Shown: piece by piece, positions 2,913 through 37,036 of the stretch
Layout of the letters: every line of letters starts with the position of its first letter
How positions within the stretch are numbered: the first letter of the stretch is position 1
IMG/VR virus record: IMGVR_UViG_3300043447_000710
Coordinates: 1 to 64,000 of that record
Reading direction: 5' to 3' (one strand)
DNA: 64,000 bases
From: a virus
Lineage: Duplodnaviria > Caudoviricetes
The notes under the pieces: generated by a model
The model's input: the letters and a program-made list of their open reading frames with translations, nothing else
Database searches by the model: none
What the model was told of the DNA's origin: nothing
Position numbers and translations under genes: made by a program

Positions 2913-2955
2913 GCGGTAACCTCACATAAAAAGGAAGGAGGTTTTACCTCCTTCC
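2913..2955 (-). promoter_or_regulatory. hairpin-ACCRC element, copy 1
   Basis: + strand GCGGT-AACCTCA-CAT-AAAAA-GGAAGGAGG tttta CCTCCTTCC. Confidence 0.75.
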
Positions 2956-3000
2956 GGTCTAAGACTCTATAAGATGAAGGGGCTTAAAGCCCCAGCAATC

Positions 3001-6000
3001 TTAGCCTAGAGTACAGACAAAGTTTTCAGCTTGAACGGCTTCTTCGTTGTCTAGAATGGTCTTGAACATCTGACCTGCAATAGTGTCTTGCAGTAAAGCG
3101 TCCAACAGCATGTCTACGTTAACAGCGCGAGAACGTTCTAGCTCGTCTTCAGACTCAGCCATTTTTTCTAACTCGGCGCGCAGTGACACGAACTTGGCGT
3201 GTGGTCTGAAGCCGAGAATAGCATCAGCGTCGATGAACGGTACGAACTCTTCAAGCTTAGCTTGAGAGACGTCTAATAACATCTGACAGATGCTAAAGAC
3301 AAACCGTAACTCGATCGGCAACATGTCAAAATTGCCACGAGTATCCTTAGAGTAGGCGGTACAGCAACCAGCCCAAAGGAAAGCATCGCGGAACTTTTCA
3401 AAGTCACCAGCCATAAAGCCAAGTTCGGCTAACGCAGAACGGACATCGCTGTCTGGGACGTGAGTAAATTGACGCACTTTGCCTAAGCTAGGTAAGATCG
3501 TGTCAAATTTAGTCTTCTCTTTGCCGATAGCTTTAAGGATATCTTCAGGTAGATTTACATCCAAATCAGTATCTCCCTGCAACGCCCGGTTTAAATAACC
3601 AAGCGTTACTTTAGCCATAGCACTAGAGTAGCCACCCAAAGCGATTTCATAGATCTGCAAGATTCGAGCGCAGCCTAAGCTCGCACTCTCTTCCTGTAAC
3701 ATCCAGTTAAATGCTTTAGTCCAGGCAGGAGCTTCGCCTGTCAGCTCGGTAGTAACTTCGACAACGGTAGGCATCATCTCAGCCAGCAACATAGTCAAAA
3801 TTGCAACTCGATAAGTGTAGCCAACAGTAATGGATTGAACGCTTCCAGCAGCTAATTGCATTTGGATGAGCTTGTTCAGACCCATTACGTTTTTATTCCA
3901 GTTGAAACCAGACTTAGCCTTGAACTCCTTCCAGTTTCCAATCTGGAAGTGATCGGCGACGTACTGATCTGGAGCATTACCCAACCAATACTTCCAATCA
4001 AAAACGTTTACACCAGTAACTTCGTGCAGCATTTTAGCAACGCTGTCAAAGGTGCTTACTTTCAAGTTCTTGGCGGCTACTTGTTTGCTACAGTCAGCAA
4101 TCGAAATTGCGTCTCCGTCTAAGTCGCCAAAGTTAACGTACATAGAAATAGATCCCATGTAAGCCAAACCGTAGCAGAACAAAACGCCGTACTTCTTACG
4201 ATAGTAAGAAACGTCCGCATTGGTAAGAATGCGAAGCTTGCAAACGCAGCCTGCAAACATAGGCATCCGGCGGAATACCACATGCGTGATGTGCTGTGCA
4301 GGTTTACCTACAGCCTTGCCTAATCGGCCTGCTGTCTTCTCAGTCAGCCATAACTCACCGTCTGGTACGAGAATACACGCAGCAGCTTTCATGTAGCCAG
4401 TTTTAGACCCGCGCAATAACGAACGTAAGTGATTGCGTCCGTTATAGTAAGCCCAAAGCATATTGCTAACACTACCAGCCATCCGAATCATTTGGTCTTT
4501 TAGTGGCGCCATTTGATAGAACAACACTAGTTTCAACCAAGAAGTCAGAGCCTTAACAGCAGAATCGCCTTCTACTTTAAGAGAGCCTTTGTTCCAATCG
4601 TACAGAGTTTGTAAATGGATATTCAGATAATTACCACGAGTGGGATCTGTATTACCAATAAACATCATCAGCGTCCGATGTCCAAAGACTTTAGCAAGCG
4701 TACGCAAGAACTCATCATCGCTGACTAGTTCGTCTCTTTGATGGCGCTCTAATAAAGCTTCCATTTCGGTGCCTACTAAAACTTCGATGATGGCACTTAA
4801 GTTAGTGCCGTCTACAGCCTCAGCAGGTATAGCTCCAAATTGAATGCTATCAGCGCTTAGCATCCGGCGAAGGATACCATCAAAAGCAACGTTCTTACGA
4901 ACTTGCTTCATCTGCTCCTTAGCAGGCTCTTTGTAACCTACTAAAGACCACCAAACGGTTTCAGAAGGCAACATTGAAGTGCTAGACACGGCTTCCGGAA
5001 TAGTTCCGGCTTCGACCTCTACAGGGTAGAGAAGGTCTAAACCATCTTTACTACCGTAACCATAGCTACGGGTAAGCATGTGATGCTCGCCGTCCTCAGT
5101 TTGCCAGTAGATGTACACCGTATCTTTTTCGTCGATTTCACCAACTGCATCGGTAACTGCAAAAGCTTTACCGGCCGCCCAGTGCTTATCGGTATAAGTA
5201 CCTTCCCGCTCTAAGCCGAGAACGGCGTCGATTAACTCGGTAGGTAACTTGCCGTCTTCCATCACAGACAATTCGTCAGCAGAAACAAAACGCCAAGGAG
5301 CACCTTTGAGTACTGCCGTCCGATCCTCAGCAACGTACAGACTAGCTATGGAACGGTTGCGTGTATGCGGCGCTTTAAGGCGAGGCATGTCGGCTTCAGG
5401 AGTGGCCTCCTTAAACCAAGCGTAAGTACCAAAACGGACGTCAAAGTCCTCTAGTAATTCGCGATACAAACCAGCCGCACAAGCCTCGGCATCTACGTAC
5501 AACCATTCGTCGTAAGTAGGTAGTTCGATGCCTTTGAAAGCCGCTACTTTACGGTTAGTCTTAACTAACAAGTCGCGCATCGCCGGAACGGTACTACCAT
5601 AATTAGCACACTGGTGCCCCGCAAATTTAACAGGAGCTACAAAGTTGTCTTTCGCTTTAAAGCTATCGCCAGGAACGACTTTTTCGACGTTCTTAAAGCG
5701 GCCGTTGTTTAAGTTCTCATAGTCTAAGAACTTCCACATTTTGACTGCTAAGACGTTTAGCTTCAAGACAACTTCAGAGCGCAGCTTGAGCGTATTCGTA
5801 ACTTGGCAGCGTAACACGTAGTGAACGTAGAAGCGCCGCTCGGCACCCGGATCTACCTCCTCAGTAACTTTAATACTGTCTAGGTAGTATTTTGACGAGT
5901 CGTCACCCTCGTCGATCTGCAAGGTTCCATAGCAAGTAATAGAACCAGCTTTATCAGCAGTCATTAACTTACCGAGAACGTCGCCTTGTTTAACGATAGT

Positions 6001-8868
6001 ACCGCTATCGAATTGGTAACCAATGACTTTTTCGACATCATAGTTTCTCGTTACTAGAGGTTGACACGAGTACTTTTCGTCAACTTCTACCCAGAAACTT
6101 TCAATCGAATCGTTACCTACGACTTTTGCAGCTTGAGACTTCTTGCTGTATACGGCCTTTACGGTATCGATATTCATCAGACCCATGCCAGGAGAAAGCA
6201 ATAGGTTAGGCAGTACTAACGATTTAACGTTAGTTACTTTGTTGACGTTATTAACATCAGTCCGCCAACCAGCCTCAACTTCACAATTGGTCTCTAAAGC
6301 GTGGGCATAGCCCATAACTACACGCTTGACAAACTTTTCAACCTTTGAAGAAAGCGGCGCGCGCAGTTCGACTAAAACTACGTCCCAGAACTGTTCGTTC
6401 TTAGTACCGTAAGCCTCGTGCATAAGAACGCCAGCTTGCAAGCAAGCCATAGCAACTTCCGGCAAGGTGAAGATTGCTTCGACAATAGCACGCTCGTCGT
6501 TCCGATCGAACGAACCGAACTTCTTAGCAAAGCCCGCAGATTGCCACTGGTCTGCTAGCATCATAACGACACTCTGCTTAGACCAGCTATTCACAGCTAC
6601 GATCGACTCTTCGATAAAGTCCTTAACTGCCCCGTTAGGATTGGTAACCAAACCAAAGTGACGAGCTGCTGTCTCAGTCATGGACAGCGCGTTACAAGTA
6701 TGTAAGGCACCATCTTTAGCTAACTGCTTGTAGTAAGCAGTTACGTTGTAAAACTCGCGATCTCGATGCGAACCTTGCAAGGACAACCAAGAGGTTGGGT
6801 GTTGCGCGGTACGGCGCATCAATTCGATCGGCATGGGCATGTTAACTTTGACAGCAACATACTTATTCGCTTCTAACAATGCGCGCCCGCTAGCAGCACT
6901 CATGTCACGCTCGCAGGAAACCTGCTGTACTGGCATGTTGTTGCGAACGAAACGCGAGAAGTAACCACCTTTAGCGTCGGCGAGTTTAGGATTGCTGTTA
7001 TGCTCGCGGTTTATATTGGCAAAGCCGTAAACTTCAAACGCATACCATAAAGCATCCAAGCTAGAAAGTTTAACGCAGTGTTCTACGCTCAACTTACCTT
7101 TGACGCCATCCGCACCAGCTACGAACGGGCGCATATGATACATAGCTAATGAGTCCATTGGCTGCATGTACGCTTGCGCTGGATAGTTACCAACTGGAGC
7201 AGTAACGATAAACTTGTTGCCGCCACTGACAGTTAATTCGAAACCGCGCTCGGTTTCGACAAAAACAAACGGAGCAACGCCTGGTTTGGCGTTTTTACCT
7301 AGGTAGCGTACGACTTCTTGACCTAGCAGCTCGAACGCCGCCTTAACAGAGTCATACTCCAATCCCGATAAAGGCATCAGCCAAGCTTCGTTTACAGGTA
7401 CGAAAGTACACAAAGGTTGATAACCTTTTTCTTGTAAGAAGTAGCCTAAAGCTTCGTACAGGCGCTGAGGAACGATAACGTTTCCATCCCAGTACTGTAA
7501 GCTCATTGCTTGCTTAATGAGCTTGACATACGATTTGGCTTCGTTGCGTTCTAAACCTTCAAAGCGAATCGGTTCGCCTTGGCGCGCCCGGTTCTTTTTG
7601 ACGATCGCATCCAATACTTCTTCGTACTTATAGTTAGGTACTGAGCTAGGAATGATATCCCAAACGATCGACTCCTTAGTATTTGGAGCTTTATCATGGG
7701 ACGCACGCATCCGCGTAACGATGTTCGTACCGCTACGCTGAGCCAATAAGCGCTGCAACTCGCGGCCGCCACTAATCAAAGGCACGAATGCCTCTAGTAA
7801 TATTCCTCCGTCTTTTAAGATAGCGTTTATTTGAAGTGGAACTCCGTAACCATTACCGTACGCACCACGCATGGCCATTACCATGTGGGTAATAGTTTTC
7901 ATGTAGTACTGCTTATCGCAGTAAGGTGCTAACGGACGCTCGAACGCAGTTGCAAAGTTTTTGCAACCAGCAAAGATTGCGTTACGAGCTTCTTGCTCCA
8001 AATACTCTGCTGGTGTAAGAATTGCTTGTTCCATTGTTGTTGACTCCATAGGGGTGTTGGTAGACGTCCCCGTCAATTGGGTTTTACCGGTTTGCTCAAC
8101 CGAACCTACCTCCACAGCGGGAGTAGGAAAGTTCTGACGGCTTTGAAAAGCTATCATTTGAGCCTCATATGCAGCCATGTCGTAATGCTCGTTAGCATAC
8201 ATGCGGCTTTGACGCTGCTGGATCGTCGGCAAGTAACGAGCCACAGGAGCTTTAAGGTCTGCCAACCGCCCACGCTCGACTCTGAGCTGGCGTTCGCTAA
8301 TTTTAGACTTCTCCTTATCGCTCTTAGCCTTAACTGCCTTAGGAGTTTTCGCCTTATTATCAGGAACGACTTTAACTACATTTTCAGTAGCTGCGGTAGT
8401 TTTAATGCTGCTAGGCTTAAGAAGCTTCAGAGTCTTCCGTAAATAACTAGGCCGCTCTAAAGCCTTTACTGCAATCTCCTTGACTTGAAGTTTTGGCTTG
8501 CTTACGCTAGAACGTTTACGCAATAACGGACGTTGTGCCCAATCTAAAGCGATCGGATTGTACGGTATGCGTAACGCCTGACGCTTCAGTACTTTGACTG
8601 GAGCTACTGCTGCTGCTACACGGCTGGCTTTACGCAAAGCTTTAGCAGCCCGTTTCTGACGAGCTGCTAACTTAACTTCAAAGCTTAAGCCGGCTGGCTT
8701 ACGGCTTTTTAACCGCGTAACACGGTTGATTTGCCGAGAGGCTTTTTGAATCGAGCGAATCCGCGCCGCCTTGTTAGACGCACGCTTTAGACTTACTTTG
8801 CTCGAAAGCAAAGAAAGCAAAGAAAGCAAAGAAAGCAAAGAAACAGTAAGAGAAAGGTTAGTAAACAT
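3001..8868 (-). CDS. single-chain two-barrel (double-psi beta-barrel) RNA polymerase, putative non-virion RNAP
   Basis: beta'-like VFRRMP (RRMP at 4261-4272) then NFGDLDGD (4111-4134); beta-like K-x7-K KLRSEVVLK (5761-5787); alternative internal start at 8034 with a GGAG RBS. Confidence 0.8.
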   Translation of the reverse strand: MFTNLSLTVSLLSLLSLLSLLSSKVSLKRASNKAARIRSIQKASRQINRVTRLKSRKPAGLSFEVKLAARQKRAAKALRKASRVAAAVAPVKVLKRQALRIPYNPIALDWAQRPLLRKRSSVSKPKLQVKEIAVKALERPSYLRKTLKLLKPSSIKTTAATENVVKVVPDNKAKTPKAVKAKSDKEKSKISERQLRVERGRLADLKAPVARYLPTIQQRQSRMYANEHYDMAAYEAQMIAFQSRQNFPTPAVEVGSVEQTGKTQLTGTSTNTPMESTTMEQAILTPAEYLEQEARNAIFAGCKNFATAFERPLAPYCDKQYYMKTITHMVMAMRGAYGNGYGVPLQINAILKDGGILLEAFVPLISGGRELQRLLAQRSGTNIVTRMRASHDKAPNTKESIVWDIIPSSVPNYKYEEVLDAIVKKNRARQGEPIRFEGLERNEAKSYVKLIKQAMSLQYWDGNVIVPQRLYEALGYFLQEKGYQPLCTFVPVNEAWLMPLSGLEYDSVKAAFELLGQEVVRYLGKNAKPGVAPFVFVETERGFELTVSGGNKFIVTAPVGNYPAQAYMQPMDSLAMYHMRPFVAGADGVKGKLSVEHCVKLSSLDALWYAFEVYGFANINREHNSNPKLADAKGGYFSRFVRNNMPVQQVSCERDMSAASGRALLEANKYVAVKVNMPMPIELMRRTAQHPTSWLSLQGSHRDREFYNVTAYYKQLAKDGALHTCNALSMTETAARHFGLVTNPNGAVKDFIEESIVAVNSWSKQSVVMMLADQWQSAGFAKKFGSFDRNDERAIVEAIFTLPEVAMACLQAGVLMHEAYGTKNEQFWDVVLVELRAPLSSKVEKFVKRVVMGYAHALETNCEVEAGWRTDVNNVNKVTNVKSLVLPNLLLSPGMGLMNIDTVKAVYSKKSQAAKVVGNDSIESFWVEVDEKYSCQPLVTRNYDVEKVIGYQFDSGTIVKQGDVLGKLMTADKAGSITCYGTLQIDEGDDSSKYYLDSIKVTEEVDPGAERRFYVHYVLRCQVTNTLKLRSEVVLKLNVLAVKMWKFLDYENLNNGRFKNVEKVVPGDSFKAKDNFVAPVKFAGHQCANYGSTVPAMRDLLVKTNRKVAAFKGIELPTYDEWLYVDAEACAAGLYRELLEDFDVRFGTYAWFKEATPEADMPRLKAPHTRNRSIASLYVAEDRTAVLKGAPWRFVSADELSVMEDGKLPTELIDAVLGLEREGTYTDKHWAAGKAFAVTDAVGEIDEKDTVYIYWQTEDGEHHMLTRSYGYGSKDGLDLLYPVEVEAGTIPEAVSSTSMLPSETVWWSLVGYKEPAKEQMKQVRKNVAFDGILRRMLSADSIQFGAIPAEAVDGTNLSAIIEVLVGTEMEALLERHQRDELVSDDEFLRTLAKVFGHRTLMMFIGNTDPTRGNYLNIHLQTLYDWNKGSLKVEGDSAVKALTSWLKLVLFYQMAPLKDQMIRMAGSVSNMLWAYYNGRNHLRSLLRGSKTGYMKAAACILVPDGELWLTEKTAGRLGKAVGKPAQHITHVVFRRMPMFAGCVCKLRILTNADVSYYRKKYGVLFCYGLAYMGSISMYVNFGDLDGDAISIADCSKQVAAKNLKVSTFDSVAKMLHEVTGVNVFDWKYWLGNAPDQYVADHFQIGNWKEFKAKSGFNWNKNVMGLNKLIQMQLAAGSVQSITVGYTYRVAILTMLLAEMMPTVVEVTTELTGEAPAWTKAFNWMLQEESASLGCARILQIYEIALGGYSSAMAKVTLGYLNRALQGDTDLDVNLPEDILKAIGKEKTKFDTILPSLGKVRQFTHVPDSDVRSALAELGFMAGDFEKFRDAFLWAGCCTAYSKDTRGNFDMLPIELRFVFSICQMLLDVSQAKLEEFVPFIDADAILGFRPHAKFVSLRAELEKMAESEDELERSRAVNVDMLLDALLQDTIAGQMFKTILDNEEAVQAENFVCTLG
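8804..8843. repeat. 9-bp tandem repeat (GAAAGCAAA)x4
   Basis: direct reading; encodes SLL repeats in the RNAP N-terminal extension. Confidence 0.9.
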
Positions 8869-8878
8869 TAAGATTGTT

Positions 8879-8921
8879 GCGGTAACGACATATAAAAAGG
8901 AAGGGGTCATTCGACCCCTTC
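8879..8921 (-). promoter_or_regulatory. hairpin-ACCRC element, copy 2
   Basis: GCGGT-AACGACA-TAT-AAAAAG-GAAGGGGTC attc GACCCCTTC. Confidence 0.75.
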
Positions 8922-8978
8922 TTAACTTTTACGAAGCTGCGGTGGCTAAATCAGCGTATGCCCGTACTAAAGTCAGTA

Positions 8979-9182
8979 TTAACGTAATACTGTATGTTGC
9001 ATCTTGCCAAAGCTTACAACGGCTTTAGGTCCTTGCATTTCTACAAATACATCAAACCTGAGGACATTAAACCGTTCGCCATCAAACAGTAATAACCAAT
9101 CATCGATGTCATAACCTTGTAGACGATCTTTCCAATCGTCATGGGTAAAGCCCGCGTACCAATGCTTTATATGTAATTTCAC
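8979..9182 (-). CDS. hypothetical early protein
   Basis: GTG start with AAGGAG RBS; one ORF per repeat unit. Confidence 0.65.
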   Translation of the reverse strand: MKLHIKHWYAGFTHDDWKDRLQGYDIDDWLLLFDGERFNVLRFDVFVEMQGPKAVVSFGKMQHTVLR

Positions 9183-9211
9183 GTTAACTCCTTATGTGGA
9201 TTCAAGTTGTC

Positions 9212-9254
9212 GCGGTAATCGCACATAAAAAGGAAGGAGATATAATCTCCTTCC
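9212..9254 (-). promoter_or_regulatory. hairpin-ACCRC element, copy 3
   Basis: GCGGT-AATCGCA-CAT-AAAAA-GGAAGGAGAT ata ATCTCCTTCC. Confidence 0.75.
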
Positions 9255-9268
9255 AGCTTAAGAGTTAA

Positions 9269-9955
9269 TTAGATTTCGTCATGCGCTGCCCCGTTATGAC
9301 GAACCTCAGCCACCATAAACGGACGCCGCTTATAGCCGTTACCGGAGTACATCAAAGACGTACCCGAAAGCTGGGCAAAGGCACCCTTGAATCCAGGACA
9401 ATCCAAGGCTAGACCGGCGGCCTCACCTATAGATTTGCCAGAGCGACTAGCCTGCTCTGCGTTGGATACTTTCGTATCCCAAATAAGAGCCATAAACTCT
9501 TCGCCTTTTGGGAGGCTGAGAACGAATTGCTTATCGTTCCCAGCCTCCTTTAGAACCCAAGAGCGAATTTTTTGTTCGCTCTTAGAGTCTAAATACCCTA
9601 GATCGAAGAGTTGATTTACATCAACGTAGCCAGTCGTTAAGTTCCGCCAGCGGCTTTTCTCAGCCTCGGAATATTCGCCAGCTTTAAGCTGGGTCATTTT
9701 TCCTTGTTCTGGAATGTAACCGATGCCGATTTTTACCTCGGCATATAAATCCTTACCTTCAGCTACTAACTGAGGTTTGAATAGATATAACCTGACGCAA
9801 CCACTCTGACCATCGTAAATCGCCGAACCAGGAATGCGTAAAAACGCTTTCCCAGCAAAGGCTCCGTCTTCAGGGTACGAAACCCATTCGATTAACTCGT
9901 CGGCATAGTACTTGCCGGCGATGTGTTCTTGAACCTGAGTTAAGTTGACGGACAT
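9269..9955 (-). CDS. hypothetical protein with acidic C-tail (HDEI), paralog of 1771-2466
   Basis: AAGGAG RBS; shared motifs with 1771-2466. Confidence 0.8.
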   Translation of the reverse strand: MSVNLTQVQEHIAGKYYADELIEWVSYPEDGAFAGKAFLRIPGSAIYDGQSGCVRLYLFKPQLVAEGKDLYAEVKIGIGYIPEQGKMTQLKAGEYSEAEKSRWRNLTTGYVDVNQLFDLGYLDSKSEQKIRSWVLKEAGNDKQFVLSLPKGEEFMALIWDTKVSNAEQASRSGKSIGEAAGLALDCPGFKGAFAQLSGTSLMYSGNGYKRRPFMVAEVRHNGAAHDEI

Positions 9956-10014
9956 AATTAATGACTCCTTACTTGTTTATGCGACGCTACCTAGCTAAGC
10001 TTTACAAGCTAGCT

Positions 10015-10058
10015 GCGGTAGATTCGCATAAAAAGGAAGTAGCTTTAAGCTACTTCCT
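10015..10058 (-). promoter_or_regulatory. hairpin-ACCRC element, copy 4
   Basis: GCGGT-AGATTCG-CAT-AAAAA-GGAAGTAGCTT t AAGCTACTTCC. Confidence 0.75.
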
Positions 10059-10065
10059 TAATTAG

Positions 10066-10311
10066 TTAGTCAATAGTTCGCAGAAGATGATAACCCATTT
10101 CCGCCAACCAGGCTCTAGCCAGCCTGTTTAGATCGTGTGGATGTAAGTCTTCAAGCTTTCGCTCGTACTTATACCCTTCTAGGTAAATTTGCCAATCTAC
10201 CTTTAACATTCGGCTTTCTCCTATGTACGTCCATAAGACGTACACATAGTCTATGGTGCCTTGTGGTAACCAAGGAGTGCCGCCAGCATAGTTTTCAGGC
10301 AACTTATACAT
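10066..10311 (-). CDS. hypothetical early protein
   Basis: 81-aa ORF between repeat copies 4 and 5. Confidence 0.65.
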   Translation of the reverse strand: MYKLPENYAGGTPWLPQGTIDYVYVLWTYIGESRMLKVDWQIYLEGYKYERKLEDLHPHDLNRLARAWLAEMGYHLLRTID

Positions 10312-10332
10312 AAATTTCAGCTTAGTTAAGCT

Positions 10333-10376
10333 GCGGTAAGTACATATAAAAAGGAGGGAGCAAAAGCTCCATCCTT
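10333..10376 (-). promoter_or_regulatory. hairpin-ACCRC element, copy 5
   Basis: GCGGT-AAGTACA-TAT-AAAAAGGAGGGAGC aaaa GCTCCATCCTT. Confidence 0.75.
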
Positions 10377-10382
10377 CATTAA

Positions 10383-10970
10383 TTAATCAGCCCTTATGCA
10401 ATTAACAAAGGCTCGACTTTCATCGAGCCCTTTCAGGACTGGGTAGTAATGCCACCGTTCGAATAGCTCCTCCCAGAAAGCAGCGTACACGACCAACGTC
10501 CCATAGCTGTCAAAGCCGTAGAACAGCTCGTCAAGTATGTCCTCAACAAAGACGCTATGGTGTTGTACCAGCTCGTAGATAAGCTGCTCGCGAGTAAAGG
10601 AAATAGCTTTAGCGTAATACTTACGTTTAAGCAATTTGCTTTCGTTTTCAAAGACTCCATCTTCGTGAAGATAGAAAGTCTTCGGAAACACTGGCTTTTG
10701 ATACCAGCGACCGAAGTCACTAGTATCAAAAGCCATTACCGCAAACAGCTCGGCTGGCGAGCAGTAATCATACAAGCCAAGTTTGGCTTTTAGATTAAGA
10801 CTTTTTCCTAATAACGTAGCTTCTTCTTTAGGCGAGACGCCTTCACCCCAGAAGAGATGTTCGATCTCATGCCAACTAATTGGCAGGGTGCTGGCTGAGA
10901 TACTTGCGACCTTACCATCAAGGTAAAGTGTGAAAGAATTCCAGCCGAAAAAAGTAATACTGTTAGACAT
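10383..10970 (-). CDS. hypothetical early protein
   Basis: GGAGTCAACACC-ATG leader; 195 aa. Confidence 0.75.
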   Translation of the reverse strand: MSNSITFFGWNSFTLYLDGKVASISASTLPISWHEIEHLFWGEGVSPKEEATLLGKSLNLKAKLGLYDYCSPAELFAVMAFDTSDFGRWYQKPVFPKTFYLHEDGVFENESKLLKRKYYAKAISFTREQLIYELVQHHSVFVEDILDELFYGFDSYGTLVVYAAFWEELFERWHYYPVLKGLDESRAFVNCIRAD

Positions 10971-10998
10971 GGTGTTGACTCCATATAATTTACATGAG

Positions 10999-11041
10999 GT
11001 GGTAACCTCATATAAAAAGGGAAGGAGATTATCTCCTTCCC
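10999..11041 (-). promoter_or_regulatory. hairpin-ACCRC element, copy 6
   Basis: GTGGT-AACCTCA-TAT-AAAAA-GGGAAGGAGAT t ATCTCCTTCCC. Confidence 0.75.
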
Positions 11042-11047
11042 TTCTCC

Positions 11048-11170
11048 TTATTTAGCCGAGACTTTTACAAAGCTGTAAAAGTCTCGGCATCCAACACCAA
11101 CAGCCGCTACAACTCCTGTAGCGACTAAGATTTGGATTGTGACGCACAAAAGTACAGCGAACTTATTCAT
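11048..11170 (-). CDS. small membrane peptide (40 aa), absent from the ORF track
   Basis: AAGGAG RBS; MNKFAVLLCVTIQILVATGVVAAVGVGCRDFYSFVKVSAK; fills one repeat unit exactly. Confidence 0.7.
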   Translation of the reverse strand: MNKFAVLLCVTIQILVATGVVAAVGVGCRDFYSFVKVSAK

Positions 11171-11200
11171 GAGTTTGACTCCTTTTTATGTGGATTTGAA

Positions 11201-11242
11201 GCGGTAACCGCACATAAAAAGGAAGGAGGATTTCTCCTCCCT
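11201..11242 (-). promoter_or_regulatory. hairpin-ACCRC element, copy 7
   Basis: GCGGT-AACCGCA-CAT-AAAAAGGAAGGAGGATTTCTCCTCCCT. Confidence 0.75.
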
Positions 11243-11249
11243 AACTAGG

Positions 11250-11585: not shown

Positions 11586-11688
11586 GGTGTTGACTCCATA
11601 TAATTTACATGACTTTACAACTCAGAGTAATTCAATTGCTGGATTCTACGTCACCATAGACCTATAGCTAACTTACTTTACATGTGTT

Positions 11689-11734
11689 GCGGTAAGGACA
11701 TATAAAAAGGAGGGGGCTAAGCCCCTTCCTTTTT
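11689..11734 (-). promoter_or_regulatory. hairpin-ACCRC element, copy 8
   Basis: GCGGT-AAGGACA-TAT-AAAAAGGAGGGGGCT a AGCCCCTTCCTTTTT. Confidence 0.75.
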
Positions 11735-29500: not shown

Positions 29501-32500
29501 CAACACGCCACGATGTTGCTCGATTGCGTTGTAGACTCTAGCACTACTAAAGACTCTAGCTTCTTCACTTAAAAAAGCTAGCGGGATACCTGTATAGGCA
29601 GCGACATGTCGCCGCATCCCAGCCTCAGCAGTTTTACCGATAGCTTCGGTTTGTTCTAAAAGTTCGCCGATAGCTACTTTCTTGTCTGCTAAAGCTTTAC
29701 TTGTAAGTTTATCGTAGCTATCTATTTCTGAAATTTGCGATTTTAGAAATTCAACTTCTTCCGCGCCAATAATATAGCCGTTATGTTTGTTACGTACTTC
29801 AGTGAGCTTTTCAGTAGCTAATTCGCGCTTGCCTAAACTACGCTCTTCTAACTCCGCCTGACTAATTTCTGGTAACGTTACTAGCTCTAAGCCGCCATTC
29901 GCTTTCAGAGTTTCGATTGTAGACTGGGCGTGCGCGAGTTTAAGGCTATCTAAAATAAATTCACTGGTCCTAGAATCTACTAGGTGCTGATTCTTTTCTA
30001 ATACTTTTTGCCATTCCTGAGAATCTTTAACACTCGCCGCTGCAATAAATGCAGCTTCAGCTTCTCGCAAGCGCTTACCTATAACCGAAGTCGTAAGGTG
30101 TTGCGGTTCGATCCTAGAATACTTACTAACTAACTCAGTTACAAACTCCGCTCCTACAGCATCTTGGCTGCGGTCTAGCATTCCCATTAAGGAATGTTGG
30201 AGCATACGAGCGGTCGCCGCAGTTCGATCTTTTTTTACCCGGCGCTCGAACGCATCTAGAAACTCTATAGCTTTAGCAAATGGCGAACTAGCGCGAATAG
30301 CGGCCGCAAACTGTTTGCTATTAGAAGTTCGTCTGATTAATAACTGATGAGTTTTGTTTAAATCTTCTCCGGTTAGACCCAAAAAGTAATTTAAGGAGTC
30401 TAGGGTAGACGTAGATTTAGTACGTTCGCTAATGGTTTCTATAGTTGGTGAAAAGTTAACTATAGCTGGAGACTCAGGTAGTTTGACAGCTTTATTTAAG
30501 AACTCAGGATTCTCTAAAGTGTAAATATTATGTAGTAATTTATCTGCATCTACGTATTCATTTTTCTGTAGTTTTTCTAGGCTTGAGACCAAACTCTCTT
30601 TGATAGCATTAGCTTTAGCGATTTTCGAGCGCTCGTTTTTAAATTCAATCTCAGCTAAGCGTTTAGCATACTTAGGCACAAAGTATTCTTCATACAGGCT
30701 CATTCGTTTTTGTAAGTGCTTGCGAGTTAAGTCGCGCTCTTTCTTCTGCTCTAATAAGTCTACGTAGCTATGAATCTCTTTTTCATAACGCCCGATTACT
30801 GCGTAACTATCGCCGTCAAAGTCCCCACCTTGAGAACTAAAGCGGCCGTAAATCGGAAGTAAAACAGTCGTTGCATTGCGCTTAGAGTCTAGAACTACAG
30901 CCGTGCCCATGTCTTTAGCTGCTTGATTCAACTCATTAACGGACATAACAGAATAACTTTGATCTAACTGAGAGGCAGCGCTAGGCCCCCCAGCTCTAAG
31001 TACTAGTACGGTATCCTTCCCATAATTCTTTCCTTCTAAGGCACCGAGTCTGCGTAAAGCACTTTGGGTTAAAGCTGATGTAAAGCGAGAACCTAAGGCT
31101 AGTTCGTCACCGCCAAGCAAGTAGCTAGCTACAGCAGTACTAGACACTCCACTGGTTTTAGTTTTTTCACCAAACGAACGTTGGGCTAAAGCTCCAGCTA
31201 AAGCTTCGTCTACTAGAGACCTGTTGACGATAGCTAATCTTTGAACTTCTTTAAGTGCTTCAAACTCACTACTGCTGATAGTACCGTCAGACTTCTGAAT
31301 TTTTTCTATTACTTCAAAATAATTAGGCAGAATCTCGTCCAATTCTCTGCGGTGCCGAATGATTCGAGGAACGAAGTTTTCAAACTCGGTTGGCAATTGA
31401 GTTAATATATCGTTGCCTAAATACAGTAAGCTTTGTCCTAACAGAGCCTTACCTTTAACACCTGACTCTAGAAACTTAACATGATAGTTGCCGTCGTCTA
31501 AAGCCAAAGCTTGAAGCTGTGGCATTAATATCGCTCGACTGGTGTGTAAGGTATCATAAATCCTAGCAGCCTTGTCAGCAGCAGTATTATCTCCACTAAG
31601 CCGATACCCAACTTCTGCTTTTTTGAAACTCAGAGCTTGCGCTCTTAAATTCTCAATATGCGAACTTTCGTTATAACCTAAAGCTCCCGCAATCTTACTT
31701 TCTAAAGCTATGTCTGACTCTAGCGCGTAACGGTCTAAAAGCGCAGACAAATTGCGAGCAGCTCCGCCACGCAAGCTTCCACTTTGGCTAGAGCTCAACT
31801 TTAACAAGTTTAAAGCGTGTTCGTAAACTACATCACCTTTAGAACTGACTTGATTGGCTAGATCTAAATATTGAGAGCCGGCTCTGTCTATAAACCAACC
31901 TATATGAGCGCCACCAGCATTATCAGCTATGGTAGTTGCTAAAGCTTTGACTTGTTGGTAAAACTCACTCCCAGAAGCCGCATCGAAATAACTGACTCTA
32001 GAACCTTCAAATAATACGTCGCCACTGGCTAACGGAGTCCCTGACTCACTAGTTCTAAATAGATCTTTATCTCGCAAGAACTCAAACACTTGAATGTTGG
32101 CGTTTACGTCAGCTAAAGCTTCGTGCGCCATATAAGTTCCATAGTCGCCGCTGGCTAGTAAAGCTCTAGCATTTTCATCGCCGGCTCTAGCTAAGTCTCT
32201 AAGATTTACCCGCTCGCTAGCTTTGTAGACATTTCCTAAAGAGTGTTTGGTGCTAGCAATCTCTCTCTTTAATTTAGGTCTATCTACGTCATTAACCGTA
32301 TCTATAGTTCTAAACGTACTTAAATCTAGACCTAACTTAGCAAATTCAGGAGTTAAAGTTGGAATATCAAACTCTCTAACGTTGTGACCGACTAAGGCAG
32401 CGTCTCGATAGCTACCACTCAGAAGTCTTGTAACTTCTTGTAGAGCACTATTTAAACTATCAAACTGTCCGGGCTTGTTAGCCTGCCAAGCAATTTCGGT

Positions 32501-35500
32501 ACGATTTTGTCCGTCAGAGAACACAAACGCTATTTCTGAAATCGAGTCGCTAGGATAATAACGAGGATCGCTTTTAGGAAAACGCTTGTCCATAAGTCCT
32601 GAAGTTTCGATGTCAAAGAACACGAACTTAGTGCCCAGCTCGTTCTTACGTCCAGAAAATCCAGTCGAGTCATCTAAGCGCCGCCGGTCGAAAAGCCCTG
32701 CTAAGGCTAAAGCTCGCTCGCGCAACTGCAAACTTTCGCTACCTGAATAGAAAGAAATCGTTTCTCCTAACAATTTACCAGTAGTAGCTAATCTTTCTAA
32801 AGCACTAGCGTCTCCACTAGTTACGGCGCGGGCATAAGTATCGAAGTAGTTATTCTCCCCAAAAACTCCTAGACTTGCGTGTATCTGACTGGTATCTTTT
32901 AAACCACCTATAGCCATTCGGTAGTCTGCAACGCTTTGAGACCCCGCAAAGGGTGAGATGAAATTTACACTTTCTACACCTCCTGTATTGGCAAATTTTA
33001 CTAACAATCTGTAAGCCGCAGCTACTTCAGTTAGTTCGTTAGGATCGCTAACGTAGCCTCGCATCCTATCGATTTGCTGCTTACTCAGTGCTAAGGAGTA
33101 ATGATATTCAAGATTAGCACTATCGCTAGAACCCGCAGCTTGTTGGATTTTAGAAGGAGCCACTCGAACGCCAATCTGGAAAGGAATCGAAGCTTCTGAT
33201 GCTGCATATACGTCGGCCGCTCTAGCTACTATCGCTTGATAAACATCGCCGCTACGATCTCTATCAGTCAGGTTTCCGGCGCGGTACTTTTCTTTAAGTT
33301 TATAAATCTCTGTTTCTTTTACTAACGCATTACTGCCGCTTTTACGAAATTCAGCTTTTGATTTGAATAATAAGTCCATTGCTGCTTGAGAATGTTTTTG
33401 CCCAAACAGAATCTCTTCGTTAACCAACCCAGTATTGCGATCGATTAAGTTTAGTTCTAGCTTAGAACCTAATAAAGGCGCCGTTGCAATCTGCTGTCTG
33501 CTGGAGTCTAATACCTGCAAACTAAGGCCGAACAAACTAGACACTACCGAAGCAGCGCGTACCGTAGCAGAACCCTGGTTGAAGCTCCGTACTCCTTTAA
33601 TAGTTTCTGCATCTTTACCGGCTGCTGTAAATAAGCCTACTACCTTTTCAATAAATCTGTTATCCCCGGCTTCTAACGCAAGGACTAAAGTCTCTTGTAA
33701 TTGTGCGACCGGCGCTAACGTACCTAAACTAGAGTACTTACCTGTTTTACTGTCTATTAGATTGAATAAGCCTGAGTTGTTTATAAACAGTCCGGCATTC
33801 TTTGTTAAAACGTCAGAACTGCCAATGCTGTCTTCAAACCCTGCCTTTTTAAAAGAGGTTGTTAATAACGCTTTTAGCTTTTGACTTTGAGCTTCTAATT
33901 TAAGCCGCTCTACTGGGTCTTTACTTTTAGAGCTTAAATCAGCTGTAAAGTAATTTGCAAACAACGCAGTAGCTAACTTGTCAGTACGCAATCGTTGCAC
34001 GAAGGCTTGAGCTGTGTCTGCAGTAGTCAGTACGTCTAAGCCAGACTCGTAATTAAATCCTTTAAGCGAAGCGCTAGCAGCCATCGAGTAAATCTCATTA
34101 TCGTTGGCAGTTCTAGAAGATAAGCCTAGCCCGCTAAGCGTGCGATCGTAATAGTCAAAAATACCAGACTCATCAAACCGTGCCGGACCTTTAACGTTTT
34201 CAACGCCAGGACGCACCGCCCCGTTAAACAAAATCGTATAGCTAACATGGCCTACCAACCTTCCGTCTAACTCAGTGAAATTTAATATATCGTTAGTAAC
34301 TGCGACTCCCTCCTGCACGTCTCGAAGACGTCCAGAAATCTTAATTGCCGCTCTAGCTGCTTTAGTAAAAGCTCCTTTCTCATCGGCATATGGAGCTAAA
34401 GCTACATATAGTCTGGAGCTGTCTCCGTCAAACGTTCCGTACTGAGTAAAACTACCGCCATCGTCAAAGCCGTATAGACCAGGCTGTAACGTGACTTTCA
34501 TGGCACCTTCTTGAGATAGCGAGATTCCTCGAATAAATTTAAACTTGTCCTTGACTTTTAAATTAACTGCTTTGCGTACGTCTTTGTTTTCCCATAATTG
34601 CTCTGCAGTTAAGTCAGAGTCATCTAAATAGGATTGTAATACGTTATTTCGGTACGTGTCGATCGCATTTAAAGTTTTAGCGTGTAATAATTCTTGTTCT
34701 CCATAGTAAATGAAACGTCCCGGAGCAAACGCTTTTTGTAGCAACGCCCGTTGGCGATCGCTAGCAATATTAGCTGCGTGTAATTTTCCACCAACAGCAT
34801 CATAACTACTAACACTTTCAATTTGAATTTTAGTGTACTGCTCGTAGCCGTAATAACTTTGATGTTTGGCATTAACGTGCATAAAGTCAGAGAGCTGATG
34901 CAAACCAGTACCGATCAGCACCCGTTTCAACTTGGAATTAGTAGCAAAACCTCTTAGCTCAGCTTGTGGGTTGGCATCGTTAATTCTTGCCATAGTAGTT
35001 GGGTCTTCCCCGTTAGCTACTGCAGTTTGTAAAGCCGCAAACTGCAATGGCGCTAATACCGTATCGACGTTCGCAGAAATTGCTTCTTCTCGGCGCAAGT
35101 TAAGTAATTTACCATTAACACTTTCGTAATATTTACTTAGGTCGTTTTGCTGTAAGAGATCTTTATAAAATTCAGACGAGTATTCGATTGCCGGCTTAGT
35201 TCCAGTAAGGTTCTTTAATCGCTGGGGAATTTGCTCGGCTTTACGGTAGGGAACTAGTAATATCGATTGGCTAGAAGTTTCTAAATAGAGCTTTTGCTGT
35301 AGCTCTTTTAACCAATCTTCTTTATCTTTATACCCGTCGAGCTCGGCTCCTAATTTGTCTAAGGTAGTAGTAGCTAGCTGTTTGCTGCCAGAAAACAAAG
35401 TAGCGATGTCATAAAAAGTAGTTGTTTCTGCAGCCATAGATTCTAATTGTGAGTCGTGATGGCGGCGATCGTAAATCTTTAGATTGCTAGTCTGCGCGGC

Positions 35501-37036
35501 AATCCCAGCATAAGCCACACCTATAGGCATCGAACCGCTGCCGTGTTTGTAAGTTCCTCCAAGCTGTAATAAAGAATTCGAGCCATCTGCTAAAGTTAAA
35601 GGGCTGCGATCTGGTAAATAATAAGCTCGTCTAGCTAGTTGCTGAGCGCCTGAAAAGTTAGCTTCGTGCGGCTGTAAATACGGAGACATTAATTGCTCGA
35701 TTAGATTTTTACGCCCGCCTTGAATCTGCTGTTTTAATAGCGCTTCATATCTACTTTGCAGCAGTAAGTTTCCTTGCCAACTAGAGGTAAGAATTGCTTG
35801 CTTTAAATTTGCAAAGGCGTCTACTCGCAACGAACGCCCGTTGATATCGGTAACTATTTGCGGATCTAAAAGTATCTGAGCTAGATTGCTAACTACTTTA
35901 GCGCCTACGCCCTGTCTTAAAGTATCGGTATTGCCTAACGGTCGCAGAACCTTATCGATGCCACTACTGTAAATATCTGCTAATCGAGCGGCACTTACTT
36001 GGGAATACTCTTGAGACCCAGATAAACTTAGAAATCTGGCTTTTAGCATTTCGCGAAAAGCCGTAACCTCTGCGCCCCGTTCTGCAAATGTATTGACATA
36101 GCTACTAAAAGTAGTATCAGCTCCGATTAACTTGCCTAAGAATTTGTCTATTTCTAAATATTGTTGGCTGCTACTATAGGTCTGCCGATCTTGAAGAAAC
36201 TGCCTAAATGCTAAGCTACGAGCTTGCTGTAGTAATATTGGCTGCTGCATTACGTAAGTGCGCACTATACCAACTGTAGTTTCAACCGCACTTTGCTCTG
36301 TCTTACCTAAGTAGCTAGCGCCAATATATCTATAGCTAGGTAGATCTAAAATGCCACCGCCTACAGTCGCTGCAAACTCGAATGTCTTGCTTTTACTTCT
36401 TAATAAATCTCTTTCTCCACTTTGAAGCAGTACTTCACCAGTACTTAAAATTTCGATATCTGGTACGCGCACGCTCAATCGCCCGTCCTTGGTTTGCGAG
36501 ATACTAATATCGATGTTGTAATCGTCTTTTAGCTGTCGTTGTAAAGAGTTCATCCCCTTAGCTAAAAAGGTAGGTTCTACAAAGGTACGACTGCGATCGC
36601 CAGATAATATAGTAGTTACGCTAGCCGATCGTTCGAGGTCGCCACTCATAACAAAACTAGCGTTAATAAAAATAGACTGAGGCTTGGCTAAATCCCCGGC
36701 TAAAGTTTGAGTTTGGGGTGCGCTCAAACCTATCGTCGGACTACCGTATAAGCCTTTAACATACCCGTAAGTATCGTCGCGAATAGAAGTGAGATTGAGA
36801 TTGCTGCTGGGAACTAGACTAGTTAATTTGCGCCCTAGATCCTGCTGGTCTACAAAAGGTTCGTAACTACCGTCTGTCGTATAACTTCCAGAAAGCCGGC
36901 TCTTAATAATATCGCTTAAAACGGACTCGTCGTTGACGCCTCTATAGCTGTCGTTAACACCATCGACAAACTCGCCAATCCGTAAAGACGTACGATTGAT
37001 AGATGTTGAAAATAAATCTAGGATCGGATCTGACAT
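26570..37036 (-). CDS. giant single-chain RNA polymerase with inserted DEDDh exonuclease (putative virion RNAP, possibly tape-measure fused)
   Basis: VLRAGGP..QGGDFDGD (30809-30826); beta-like RPGVENVKG (~34187-34213); FFDIETSG..GHNVREFD..HEALAD (~32100-32630); late-gene context. Confidence 0.75.
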   Translation of the reverse strand: MSDPILDLFSTSINRTSLRIGEFVDGVNDSYRGVNDESVLSDIIKSRLSGSYTTDGSYEPFVDQQDLGRKLTSLVPSSNLNLTSIRDDTYGYVKGLYGSPTIGLSAPQTQTLAGDLAKPQSIFINASFVMSGDLERSASVTTILSGDRSRTFVEPTFLAKGMNSLQRQLKDDYNIDISISQTKDGRLSVRVPDIEILSTGEVLLQSGERDLLRSKSKTFEFAATVGGGILDLPSYRYIGASYLGKTEQSAVETTVGIVRTYVMQQPILLQQARSLAFRQFLQDRQTYSSSQQYLEIDKFLGKLIGADTTFSSYVNTFAERGAEVTAFREMLKARFLSLSGSQEYSQVSAARLADIYSSGIDKVLRPLGNTDTLRQGVGAKVVSNLAQILLDPQIVTDINGRSLRVDAFANLKQAILTSSWQGNLLLQSRYEALLKQQIQGGRKNLIEQLMSPYLQPHEANFSGAQQLARRAYYLPDRSPLTLADGSNSLLQLGGTYKHGSGSMPIGVAYAGIAAQTSNLKIYDRRHHDSQLESMAAETTTFYDIATLFSGSKQLATTTLDKLGAELDGYKDKEDWLKELQQKLYLETSSQSILLVPYRKAEQIPQRLKNLTGTKPAIEYSSEFYKDLLQQNDLSKYYESVNGKLLNLRREEAISANVDTVLAPLQFAALQTAVANGEDPTTMARINDANPQAELRGFATNSKLKRVLIGTGLHQLSDFMHVNAKHQSYYGYEQYTKIQIESVSSYDAVGGKLHAANIASDRQRALLQKAFAPGRFIYYGEQELLHAKTLNAIDTYRNNVLQSYLDDSDLTAEQLWENKDVRKAVNLKVKDKFKFIRGISLSQEGAMKVTLQPGLYGFDDGGSFTQYGTFDGDSSRLYVALAPYADEKGAFTKAARAAIKISGRLRDVQEGVAVTNDILNFTELDGRLVGHVSYTILFNGAVRPGVENVKGPARFDESGIFDYYDRTLSGLGLSSRTANDNEIYSMAASASLKGFNYESGLDVLTTADTAQAFVQRLRTDKLATALFANYFTADLSSKSKDPVERLKLEAQSQKLKALLTTSFKKAGFEDSIGSSDVLTKNAGLFINNSGLFNLIDSKTGKYSSLGTLAPVAQLQETLVLALEAGDNRFIEKVVGLFTAAGKDAETIKGVRSFNQGSATVRAASVVSSLFGLSLQVLDSSRQQIATAPLLGSKLELNLIDRNTGLVNEEILFGQKHSQAAMDLLFKSKAEFRKSGSNALVKETEIYKLKEKYRAGNLTDRDRSGDVYQAIVARAADVYAASEASIPFQIGVRVAPSKIQQAAGSSDSANLEYHYSLALSKQQIDRMRGYVSDPNELTEVAAAYRLLVKFANTGGVESVNFISPFAGSQSVADYRMAIGGLKDTSQIHASLGVFGENNYFDTYARAVTSGDASALERLATTGKLLGETISFYSGSESLQLRERALALAGLFDRRRLDDSTGFSGRKNELGTKFVFFDIETSGLMDKRFPKSDPRYYPSDSISEIAFVFSDGQNRTEIAWQANKPGQFDSLNSALQEVTRLLSGSYRDAALVGHNVREFDIPTLTPEFAKLGLDLSTFRTIDTVNDVDRPKLKREIASTKHSLGNVYKASERVNLRDLARAGDENARALLASGDYGTYMAHEALADVNANIQVFEFLRDKDLFRTSESGTPLASGDVLFEGSRVSYFDAASGSEFYQQVKALATTIADNAGGAHIGWFIDRAGSQYLDLANQVSSKGDVVYEHALNLLKLSSSQSGSLRGGAARNLSALLDRYALESDIALESKIAGALGYNESSHIENLRAQALSFKKAEVGYRLSGDNTAADKAARIYDTLHTSRAILMPQLQALALDDGNYHVKFLESGVKGKALLGQSLLYLGNDILTQLPTEFENFVPRIIRHRRELDEILPNYFEVIEKIQKSDGTISSSEFEALKEVQRLAIVNRSLVDEALAGALAQRSFGEKTKTSGVSSTAVASYLLGGDELALGSRFTSALTQSALRRLGALEGKNYGKDTVLVLRAGGPSAASQLDQSYSVMSVNELNQAAKDMGTAVVLDSKRNATTVLLPIYGRFSSQGGDFDGDSYAVIGRYEKEIHSYVDLLEQKKERDLTRKHLQKRMSLYEEYFVPKYAKRLAEIEFKNERSKIAKANAIKESLVSSLEKLQKNEYVDADKLLHNIYTLENPEFLNKAVKLPESPAIVNFSPTIETISERTKSTSTLDSLNYFLGLTGEDLNKTHQLLIRRTSNSKQFAAAIRASSPFAKAIEFLDAFERRVKKDRTAATARMLQHSLMGMLDRSQDAVGAEFVTELVSKYSRIEPQHLTTSVIGKRLREAEAAFIAAASVKDSQEWQKVLEKNQHLVDSRTSEFILDSLKLAHAQSTIETLKANGGLELVTLPEISQAELEERSLGKRELATEKLTEVRNKHNGYIIGAEEVEFLKSQISEIDSYDKLTSKALADKKVAIGELLEQTEAIGKTAEAGMRRHVAAYTGIPLAFLSEEARVFSSARVYNAIEQHRGVLPGLEDLDKSVTNAGDLNLRTIESVAEFHRGVLKPIALKNDNSPEFLAAARTSLLAGIENYDGKVRTALRTTIENSSTEALLAYSHTELLDKTLMVTNSETALSGALAGIAKFVSNAGGTALSNKAFTALSMTIGAAGTNLIGEAYNAITLLGSKASVARALSEVYTNGRVQSTYAEADGDKFTSVMTSALERAFPAGGDWENSFEADKARQAKELLVQTFANPERLGAASFNRAQALTGMLANVQQSIRDSLKQKLDRGMLDSIMTERTYGDMTAYDLLTSEYTTDEERLPALRKFLGQDAGESIFHLPGETTQQRSKVTAFGALFLLNDYLGITSTGAAEKLIGLNGKGDGSYEFLRQRYERMQMLAKSTGDSKYAAMLEPDAFVAHSVIDLLAMSTAQRSAEVMAFKEVDFESFRNLAKASFVSDGSGGSVEGFTAKALQDVRLEYGLGDGLNERAINAAESLYFDPVTGADLLQTAEQRIAAAKQLGLDTDGSEASFNAIKANFWQRATTNFIYHNLKATGITAEDLVGMRETAAVIKHLRFDSIEGATEFRDFVNRSSLAIEGLLISSTRDQITDPRQRAVMSYEAGSQLFAAMHDVKERIESTYGKGVLDSDGGVPIETMRAYRQAEQVAGIFNNMLSDADSSIKAKASEMFAIAMAKGDGKTSGWQELSHFLGGVAQMRKSEDSLMFSASAQEAPSLDAVEFSENYSKAKEAGTVPEFLIAEGAKIAARSQEVKTAAITEANTKLDADAKTAKTSARHSMASAFLAPGLALFITSSQTDSNLTEHAYGAAQAVAQVAEMGEHRRWSSAALFQVDRLRQTVASEGKVFGTLKGVTSEILFESISRLSHRVAGSDIKAGGRSYLAELGTALLATVASSLTTDRRFGARGEAEEDYQVEALRQLPSLAIGTADAAIEDFLNSTSLPVDSETEVEYTATLKVGEDTLAGQFASGWLKANPFRDLDVEVEDFESA

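Follow-up and report, generated by a model that had tools for sequence, protein, structure and literature searches.

A freshwater cyanophage-like myovirus, represented by a single 152,640-bp virus record (IMG/VR IMGVR_UViG_3300043447_000710), encodes a protein of 1,969 amino acids (aa) that is almost certainly an RNA polymerase. By its predicted structure and its invariant residues, this protein is of the single-chain two-barrel type and belongs to the QDE-1/phage clade. Its gene lies within an array of 18 conserved hairpin elements in the first 64 kb of the record (the window analysed here), and the same window holds the gene for a giant protein of 3,488 aa, which is probably a second two-barrel RNA polymerase. 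Together, these features suggest, with about an even chance of being right, a transcription system encoded by the phage itself, of the type known from Thermus phage P23-45: two polymerases and an early gene block marked by the elements. The scheme itself is known from P23-45; what is new is the lineage, the architecture of the giant protein with its exonuclease insertion, and the design of the hairpin cassette. An earlier interpretation made from the letters of this DNA and its open frames (the sequence-only reading) had proposed both enzymes and the element-marked block; its observations were partly confirmed, and its interpretation is partly supported.

A two-barrel RNA polymerase within the hairpin array

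The smaller polymerase gene (3001..8868, minus strand) codes for 1,955 aa from the ATG at 8868. Its open frame extends to 8910 (1,969 aa), where it overlaps the upstream element, and for this reason ATG 8868 is the likely start. The product is putatively the non-virion enzyme of the pair. An AlphaFold2 model of its polymerase module (aa 900-1969, 1,070 residues; 3004..6213, minus strand), computed from the family alignment, has a predicted local distance difference test score (pLDDT) of 87.4 and a predicted template modelling score (pTM) of 0.86, and it contains two predicted double-psi beta-barrels forming one cleft. All of the top 50 Foldseek matches in the PDB are RNA polymerase chains (beta-prime, Rpb2, QDE-1, P23-45 gp96). 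VIA-align gave the highest scores with RDR2 and QDE-1 (Z 10.0-10.5, 320-410 residues, root-mean-square deviation 4.0-5.5 Å), then with the P23-45-type non-virion polymerases gp64/gp62 (Z 8.0) and the gp96 virion polymerase (Z 7.6), and lastly with Rpb1 and African swine fever virus (ASFV) RPB1 (about Z 6). These structural alignments span model residues 1-1058, and those with RDR2 and QDE-1 cover both barrels.

Two-barrel polymerases are recognised by an R-x-P motif, a DxDxD motif and a basic pair (PMC2919709, PMC7824862). In the smaller protein, the beta-prime-like barrel runs from RRMP to GDLDGD (4111..4272, minus strand): RRMP is aa 1547-1550 (nucleotides (nt) 4261-4272) and GDLDGD is aa 1595-1600 (nt 4111-4128), and 20 relatives share R1548, P1550, G1595, D1596, D1598, G1599 and D1600 without exception. 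For the beta-like barrel, the candidate basic pair lies in KLRSEVVLK (aa 1042-1050; 5761..5787, minus strand), in which K1042, R1044 and K1050 (K-x-R-x5-K) are invariant in the same relatives; the distance from K1042 to K1050 is 8, the same as that between K979 and K987 of Rpb2. As for the aspartate of this barrel that would bind the second magnesium, expected N-terminal to the basic pair, none is invariant between the PGMG strand and K1042, while D1082 and D1088 are invariant but lie after the basic pair. The sequence-only reading had quoted beta-prime-type and beta-type motifs for both large proteins and had called this one a single-chain two-barrel polymerase: every quoted string is present at its place, the signature residues of the smaller protein are invariant in the 20 relatives aligned, and the model, the Foldseek matches and the VIA-align scores bear the assignment out.

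An exhaustive HMMER search with residues 900-1969 returned 22 representative clusters, whose members are mostly 1,700-2,700 aa long; the alignment comprises 20 relatives at 17-61% identity. Pfam and PHROG scans assigned no polymerase family to either the smaller or the giant protein, none of 50,697 phage records was matched by the smaller protein in tblastn, and PDB sequence and profile searches with both families returned nothing relevant. With hhalign, the smaller family aligned to P23-45 gp96 at the DxDGD loop only (E 0.19), but weak sequence signals are usual between such polymerase families (PMC10770324). The family around the smaller enzyme counts 22 or more diverged clusters, for which there is no Pfam or PHROG model. 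One metagenomic protein of 3,900 aa (P0027) carries the module, with the motif MDFGDFDGD, embedded at about aa 2409-2637 of a multi-domain chain, so the smaller-type module also exists in fused form.

The top match of the model in BFVD is an uncharacterised protein of Microcystis phage MaMV-DC (E 1.9e-17, TM 0.41/0.50), which is taken to be the 1,697-aa homologue described below; weaker matches include fragments of crAss-like phage proteins. Two different uncharacterised proteins of Acinetobacter phage vB_AbaM_ME3 also match the polymerase model in BFVD (E 6e-6 and 2e-3), and this phage may be another with a hidden polymerase pair.

A giant protein with a candidate catalytic barrel

The giant-protein gene (26570..37036, minus strand) encodes a probable polymerase that may be delivered with the virion. 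The sequence-only reading had placed it among virion genes. It does adjoin a block for portal, protease, capsid and sheath, but it is divergent from that block and co-directional with genes for a weak PAAR-like and a cadherin-domain protein. Searches of protein collections returned seven further family members of 3,100-3,700 aa, and three more distant ones of 2,231-3,707 aa were found on IMG/VR contigs. The family also includes a partial giant of a Microcoleus phage and ORF82L of MaMV-DC (3,560 aa), both encoded beside head genes. Ten sequences from the protein, IMG/VR and metagenome searches were usable for alignment.

The evidence for a polymerase centres on a candidate catalytic barrel (30809..30997, minus strand) that runs from RAGGP (aa 2014-2018; nt 30983-30997) to QGGDFDGD (aa 2069-2076), within which GGDFDGD is aa 2070-2076 (nt 30809-30829). 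In the family alignment, R2014, P2018, N2054, T2056, G2064 and QGGDFDGD are invariant in all ten members aligned over this segment, where identity ranges from 17 to 68%. The spacing from R to P varies: R-x3-P here, R-x-P in MaMV-DC and in one other giant (L003). An R..P...QGGDFDGD-type motif is also found in the giants of MaMV-DC and the Microcoleus phage. Two hhalign comparisons of the giant segment with the smaller family, over 60 and 48 columns, matched the arginines to each other and DFDGD to DLDGD, at E 6e-4 (probability 28%) and E 4e-4 (probability 36%). Two further leads point to an RNA polymerase: a language-model search with residues 1990-2100 found PF05183 RdRP among the nearest named clusters (score 0.87, a lead only), and Pfam RdRP matched two of seven giant members below threshold (best E 0.05). 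Whole-length alignments of the giant and smaller families showed no similarity by hhalign, and the giant family aligned with P23-45 gp96 at the DFDGD loop only.

A candidate first barrel lies about 1,200 residues N-terminal to the DFDGD segment, in the region with RPGVENVKG (34187..34342, minus strand). Here K899, R905 and K949-G-P are invariant, but R942 is not: RPGVENVKG itself (aa 942-950; nt 34187-34213) has this arginine replaced in the most distant full-length relative. The second of the two giant motifs on which the sequence-only reading relied is therefore not conserved as quoted, whereas R2014, P2018 and GGDFDGD of the first hold in all ten members aligned there. We consider the 3,488-aa protein a probable second two-barrel RNA polymerase, on catalytic-barrel evidence.

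Two large segments set the giant protein apart. A DnaQ-type 3'-5' exonuclease domain (32105..32617, minus strand) extends from FDIETSG (aa 1474) to HEALADV (aa 1638), and aa 1474-1644 match this type in PHROG (E 7e-9). In one distant relative (L002) the exonuclease stretch is about 170 residues shorter while the flanking blocks are kept, which makes it an insertion. Residues 2112-2456 form a variable helical insertion of about 340 aa. Two genes downstream of the giant gene, in the same orientation, lies a gene for an Rv2179c-like 3'-5' exoribonuclease (25230-25802, minus strand; Pfam E 1.1e-9), for which the PHROG label is RNase H (E 3e-44).

Eighteen hairpin elements mark a block of early-type genes

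The hairpin elements (2913..16282, minus strand) share one design. On the coding strand, an AT-rich stretch is followed by a GC-rich hairpin of 9-12 bp, an invariant TTTTT, and a downstream motif at fixed spacing that reads A-T-R-Y-G, then three to four variable bases, then TTACC(G/A)C (in short, ATRYG-N-TTACCRC). The pattern CCTTTTT-N10-ACC-N-C has 18 matches in the window against 0.05 expected, all of them on the minus strand between 2913 and 16260, and none in the rest of the 152.6-kb genome. The cores start at 2913, 8879, 9212, 10015, 10333, 10999, 11201, 11689, 12552, 12944, 13419, 13844, 14574, 14768, 15215, 15545, 15884 and 16239. The outer pairs of the hairpin are GGAAG/CTTCC; the inner pairs vary between copies with complementarity kept, and when folded one by one, all 18 elements form hairpins (-9.5 to -22 kcal/mol, loops of 3-5 nt) with differing stems. 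A second stem after the T-run (ATGAGGT/ACCTCAT) is strong in four copies only and is not a general feature. These counts uphold the earlier claim of 18 conserved elements, as does their confinement to one strand and one region.

The elements are placed with regard to genes. The distance from the core to the next start codon is 11-100 nt, and nearly all genes between 16.2 and 8.9 kb have one element each, as do the smaller polymerase gene and the gene after it. The polymerase gene is bracketed by the elements at 8879 and 2913, as the sequence-only reading had it, and 16 more lie upstream; the gene is thereby enclosed in a block of small genes about 13 kb long. A contig of a relative with a 61%-identical polymerase (L016) carries nine or more elements built on this design, in which the stem sequences are wholly different, including one directly before and one directly after the polymerase gene; its downstream motif has CTACC or CCACC in place of TTACC. 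One candidate interpretation, that the elements are mobile repeats, was rejected: they have a single orientation, are intergenic before start codons, form one block, and keep their design in a second phage.

What could the elements do? In all 18, a GC-rich stem-loop is followed directly by a T-run, so that each fits the pattern of a predicted intrinsic terminator; terminator-like sites came to 64, with 19 expected. The resemblance of the hairpin and TTTTT to an intrinsic terminator favours a terminator plus promoter over a promoter alone. A terminator, in turn, leaves four features unexplained: the motif after the T-run, the position before start codons, the restriction to one block, and the drift of the element in step with the polymerases. 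All four would follow from a start signal specific to the phage. Before the early genes, sigma-70-like sites show no enrichment (22, with 26 expected). That the elements carry a start signal for a phage polymerase is thus the likelier reading, and each may be a fused terminator-promoter giving single-gene transcription units.

The genes behind the elements are about 16 small early-type genes (8979..16210, minus strand), with one element before each. One of them (12994-13317) encodes a homologue of the AcrIII-1/STIV B116-like ring nuclease (PF08960, 40.7 bits, E 2.7e-10, above the cut-off), and this AcrIII-1-type cassette suggests that the array is an early anti-defence block. A conserved leader of about 100 nt (…AAAGTAAGTTAGCTAGGCC…GAACTTGAAG) is found at 12491-12596, 12883-12988 and 13358-13463, and also with the element copy at 11689; these three or four cassettes thus share it, in addition to the element, ahead of their genes, and it could be a structured 5' untranslated region or a small RNA. 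At 16379-16559, immediately upstream of the first element and at the boundary with the late-gene block, a 50-nt unit is repeated in tandem three times with a spacing of 65-66 nt.

The source genome and its relatives

The assignment to cyanophage-like myoviruses, made earlier from the letters alone, holds because of the structural gene set, the capsid identities and a gene of a relative. On the plus strand, between 39 and 55 kb, lie genes for portal, protease, major capsid and tail sheath, together with one for a tape-measure-like protein that bears a peptidase (51718-54831), the last distinct from the giant-protein gene. The capsid protein is 25-27% identical to those of the Microcystis phages Ma-LMM01 and MaMV-DC and of Microcoleus phage My-WqHQDG, and nblA is present on the contig of a close relative. 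The phage is accordingly distant kin of Ma-LMM01 and MaMV-DC.

Across the 152.6-kb genome, D-x-D-G-D occurs in two proteins only, those of 1,969 and 3,488 aa. Both types co-occur in four genomes: this phage, the L016 contig, a 207,855-bp IMG/VR record (G001), and MaMV-DC (NC_029002). The last also has exactly two large D-x-DGD proteins. The first is the 1,697-aa homologue of the smaller enzyme (49227-54317, minus strand; hhalign probability 92.5%, E 4.9e-7, 374 columns), whose alignment takes in RTPM, GDADGD and an LGGY block. The second is ORF82L (66655-77343, minus strand), which has RSPPPGN...NLGDFDGD at the same position and lies next to head genes. MaMV-DC has two sites of the form hairpin-TTTTT-(N)-TAGTGGT-CTATAWT, one at 60173 and the other at 54291, where it immediately precedes the 1,697-aa gene. 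No smaller-type protein was detected in two further genomes (G002, G003) or in the Microcoleus phage, but the profile search is insensitive: in six frames it also missed the MaMV-DC homologue that hhalign detected, so non-detection says little.

In G001, a 21-nt repeat (AAAGTCCTTTTAGGGCCCG…) occurs at 185.0-201.9 kb (loci L031-L032) in 12-17 exact k-mer copies. They form six intergenic clusters that start right after the smaller-type polymerase gene, and the repeat may be a different promoter or operator system.

Outside the window, another giant open reading frame of 4,365 aa (genome 85684-98781, plus strand; L012:1684-14781) gives a match to an RlpA-like DPBB_1 lytic transglycosylase over aa 3726-3775 (E 2.5e-5, under the Pfam cut-off); the DxDGD motif is absent from it. 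A family-A DNA polymerase is present in split form at about 130.3-135.3 kb of the genome (minus strand), with matches over separate open frames that cover PF00476 positions 58-137, 139-288 and 301-342.

A proposed transcription scheme and its alternatives

In the scheme we favour, the giant protein would be a second two-barrel polymerase with large insertions, including the DnaQ-type exonuclease. It would be packaged, injected, and read the element-marked early genes, the smaller polymerase gene among them; the smaller enzyme would then transcribe later genes. At each element, the hairpin and TTTTT would terminate the upstream transcript, and ATRYG..TTACCRC would steer the phage polymerase to initiate 10-100 nt before the next start codon, resulting in single-gene transcription units. 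That the giant enzyme is the reader of the elements is a tentative assignment, made by analogy because the P23-45 virion enzyme transcribes a comparable block.

Several observations weigh against this scheme. First, the giant protein is a putative virion component, placed there by its gene order beside the head genes. Second, structure prediction, so clear for the smaller protein, gave a low-confidence model for the giant: AlphaFold2 on aa 1740-2939 with ten sequences reached a pLDDT of 61 and a pTM of 0.30, with the motif region below 50, and no barrel fold around DFDGD is demonstrated in it. The sequence evidence is limited to about 60 residues, and neither hhalign against the smaller family nor the language-model search found a second barrel. 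Third, a hairpin with TTTTT, taken alone, has the look of an intrinsic terminator for the host polymerase, and the elements are absent from the distant relative G001, which has both proteins. Fourth, a k-mer enrichment over 139 upstream regions outside the array, insensitive to short motifs, found no convincing second motif for the remaining genes. Finally, the record has an estimated completeness of 83% and no end repeats; given that estimate, position 1 of the window is not necessarily the genome end that enters first.

These points open the way to the alternative that survives best, although we think it a good deal less probable: there may be one phage polymerase only. The giant would then be a virion or ejection protein in which DFDGD binds metal for another activity, the host RNA polymerase would make the first transcripts, and the elements would be intrinsic terminators or 3'-end stabilisers only. 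The unreliable model with no visible barrel, the lack of resemblance to the smaller family beyond some 60 residues, and the terminator pattern of every element are all in keeping with this, as is the Ma-LMM01 transcriptome, which was interpreted with sigma-70-type promoters only (PMC5780444). However, a metal site for some other activity does not account well for an R..P and a QGGDFDGD that stay invariant at barrel-like spacing among such diverged giants, in register with a structurally supported barrel, or for the language-model and Pfam leads, which both indicate RdRP. Nor does a pure terminator explain why ATRYG-N-ACCRC stands at a fixed spacing behind the T-run and is retained in a second phage, and the early genes show no enrichment of sigma-70-like sites.

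A bolder extension, which we regard as improbable, is that the whole clade of freshwater cyanobacterial myoviruses, Ma-LMM01 and MaMV-DC included, depends little on the host polymerase for transcribing its genome. Injection would bring in a giant two-barrel polymerase, equipped with its own 3'-5' exonuclease, to act first; a second two-barrel polymerase would follow, and in the present phage the elements would be read as extruded DNA hairpins. QDE-1 and crAss gp66 prefer single-stranded templates, and the extruded-hairpin reading fits this preference. If true, it would place an N4-like promoter principle in an unrelated enzyme class.

Less probable still is a reading with both polymerases in which the smaller, non-virion enzyme uses the elements as its promoters. 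The first round of transcription would then fall to the host polymerase, or to the giant enzyme acting from other signals, and the smaller enzyme would afterwards amplify transcription of its own gene and of the small genes. Elements do flank the smaller polymerase gene in two phages; their sequence shifts with the smaller enzyme (from TTACC to CTACC or CCACC in the 61%-identical relative); and in G001, where the smaller-type enzyme has diverged much further, a different 21-nt repeat lies beside that gene. Yet the giant diverges in parallel in the same genomes, and the co-variation therefore does not discriminate between the two enzymes. Moreover, the dense, strongly conserved motifs of P23-45 belong to its virion enzyme (PMC10770324), and the region upstream of the array yielded no independent start signal.

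Finally, instead of a transcriptase, the giant might be a PolD-like two-barrel enzyme, either a DNA polymerase or primase-like, that proofreads with its exonuclease, but although a DnaQ-type 3'-5' exonuclease between conserved blocks is an arrangement typical of DNA polymerases, this is very improbable: the genome's own split family-A DNA polymerase weakens such a reading, the exonuclease segment is missing in L002 with the core kept, the gene adjoins structural genes, and the nearest leads are RdRP-type. A P23-45-type system with a giant and a smaller polymerase thus remains the preferred reading.

Implications

The bloom-controlling phages of the Ma-LMM01/MaMV-DC/MaMV-DH01 group have been published as polymerase-less and dependent on host sigma-70: the MaMV-DH01 genome paper states that the phage lacks an RNA polymerase (PMC9927357), and in the Ma-LMM01 transcriptome all temporal classes were ascribed to the host sigma-70 polymerase and its promoters (PMC5780444). 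We found no literature linking cyanophages with two-barrel polymerases, and the two reports agree with the earlier statement that no such system had been described in phages of this kind. We see an annotation gap here, as MaMV-DC carries the protein pair. The Ma-LMM01 study left unexplained why there are three temporal gene classes while host transcription is almost unchanged (PMC5780444); a hidden polymerase pair would be a direct and testable explanation, in a culturable system.

The present proposal would also extend the two-enzyme scheme of the P23-45 type from Thermus siphoviruses to cyanobacterial myoviruses. Should the giant be confirmed as a two-barrel polymerase, this fold would be paired with a DnaQ-type exonuclease, possibly a new enzyme combination. 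The element has the appearance of a compact terminator-promoter cassette that could be reused once characterised, and the family of the smaller enzyme is large and uncharted.

Comparison with known systems

The promoter of phage N4 is a short DNA hairpin (5-7 bp stem, 3-nt loop) that is extruded and bound by the virion polymerase, a T7-like enzyme. The elements described here have longer stems (9-12 bp) and would serve a different enzyme class, so the resemblance is a lead only.

For the smaller enzyme, the best structural match is to the eukaryotic RNA-silencing polymerases QDE-1 and RDR2 (PDB 2j7n, 7y7t, 7w82, 7roz), with which it has the layout of R-x-P, DxDGD and basic pair in common (PMC2919709). 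It differs from them in an identity of only about 10%, an extra N-terminal part of about 900 aa, beta-hairpin insertions in its first barrel, and an expected template of phage DNA. Phage phi14:2, which is crAss-like, likewise has a large virion-type DFDxD protein that transcribes early genes (gp66, PDB 6VR4; bioRxiv 10.1101/2020.03.07.982082), although 6VR4 was absent from the structure-search matches. There, the phage has a single polymerase and leaves middle and late genes to the host enzyme, and its early transcripts have no common upstream motif, in contrast to the strongly conserved element found here. MaMV-DC differs in several ways: its capsid identity is 27%, the dense hairpin array is absent with only the two hairpin-TTTTT-TAGTGGT sites seen, and ORF82L has, as judged by eye, an N-terminal stretch with a PLD-like H-x-K motif that was not seen in the giant here. 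Published annotations of MaMV-DC and Ma-LMM01 (Fukuivirus) name no polymerase.

The closest parallel is P23-45, with its virion enzyme gp96 and non-virion enzyme gp64 (PMC10770324; PDB 8h2n, 8f72, 8f5m). In both phages, two single-chain two-barrel enzymes are present or proposed. In each, a giant protein encoded alongside structural genes includes one of the enzymes, here only probably so. The other enzyme is encoded within a compact early block in which a conserved motif recurs many times, together with conserved terminators. The P23-45 virion polymerase transcribes a 9-kb block at the genome end that includes the second polymerase gene and has 14 strongly conserved promoters and seven conserved terminators (PMC10770324); here and in the relative L016, the second-polymerase gene likewise lies within the block of dense motifs. 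The differences are equally instructive. The phage here is a myovirus with a cyanobacterial host instead of a long-tailed siphovirus, and sequence similarity to P23-45 is undetectable beyond DFDGD. Its giant is not the tape measure and has the DnaQ-type exonuclease and the helical insertion of about 340 aa, and promoter and terminator are apparently fused in one hairpin element.

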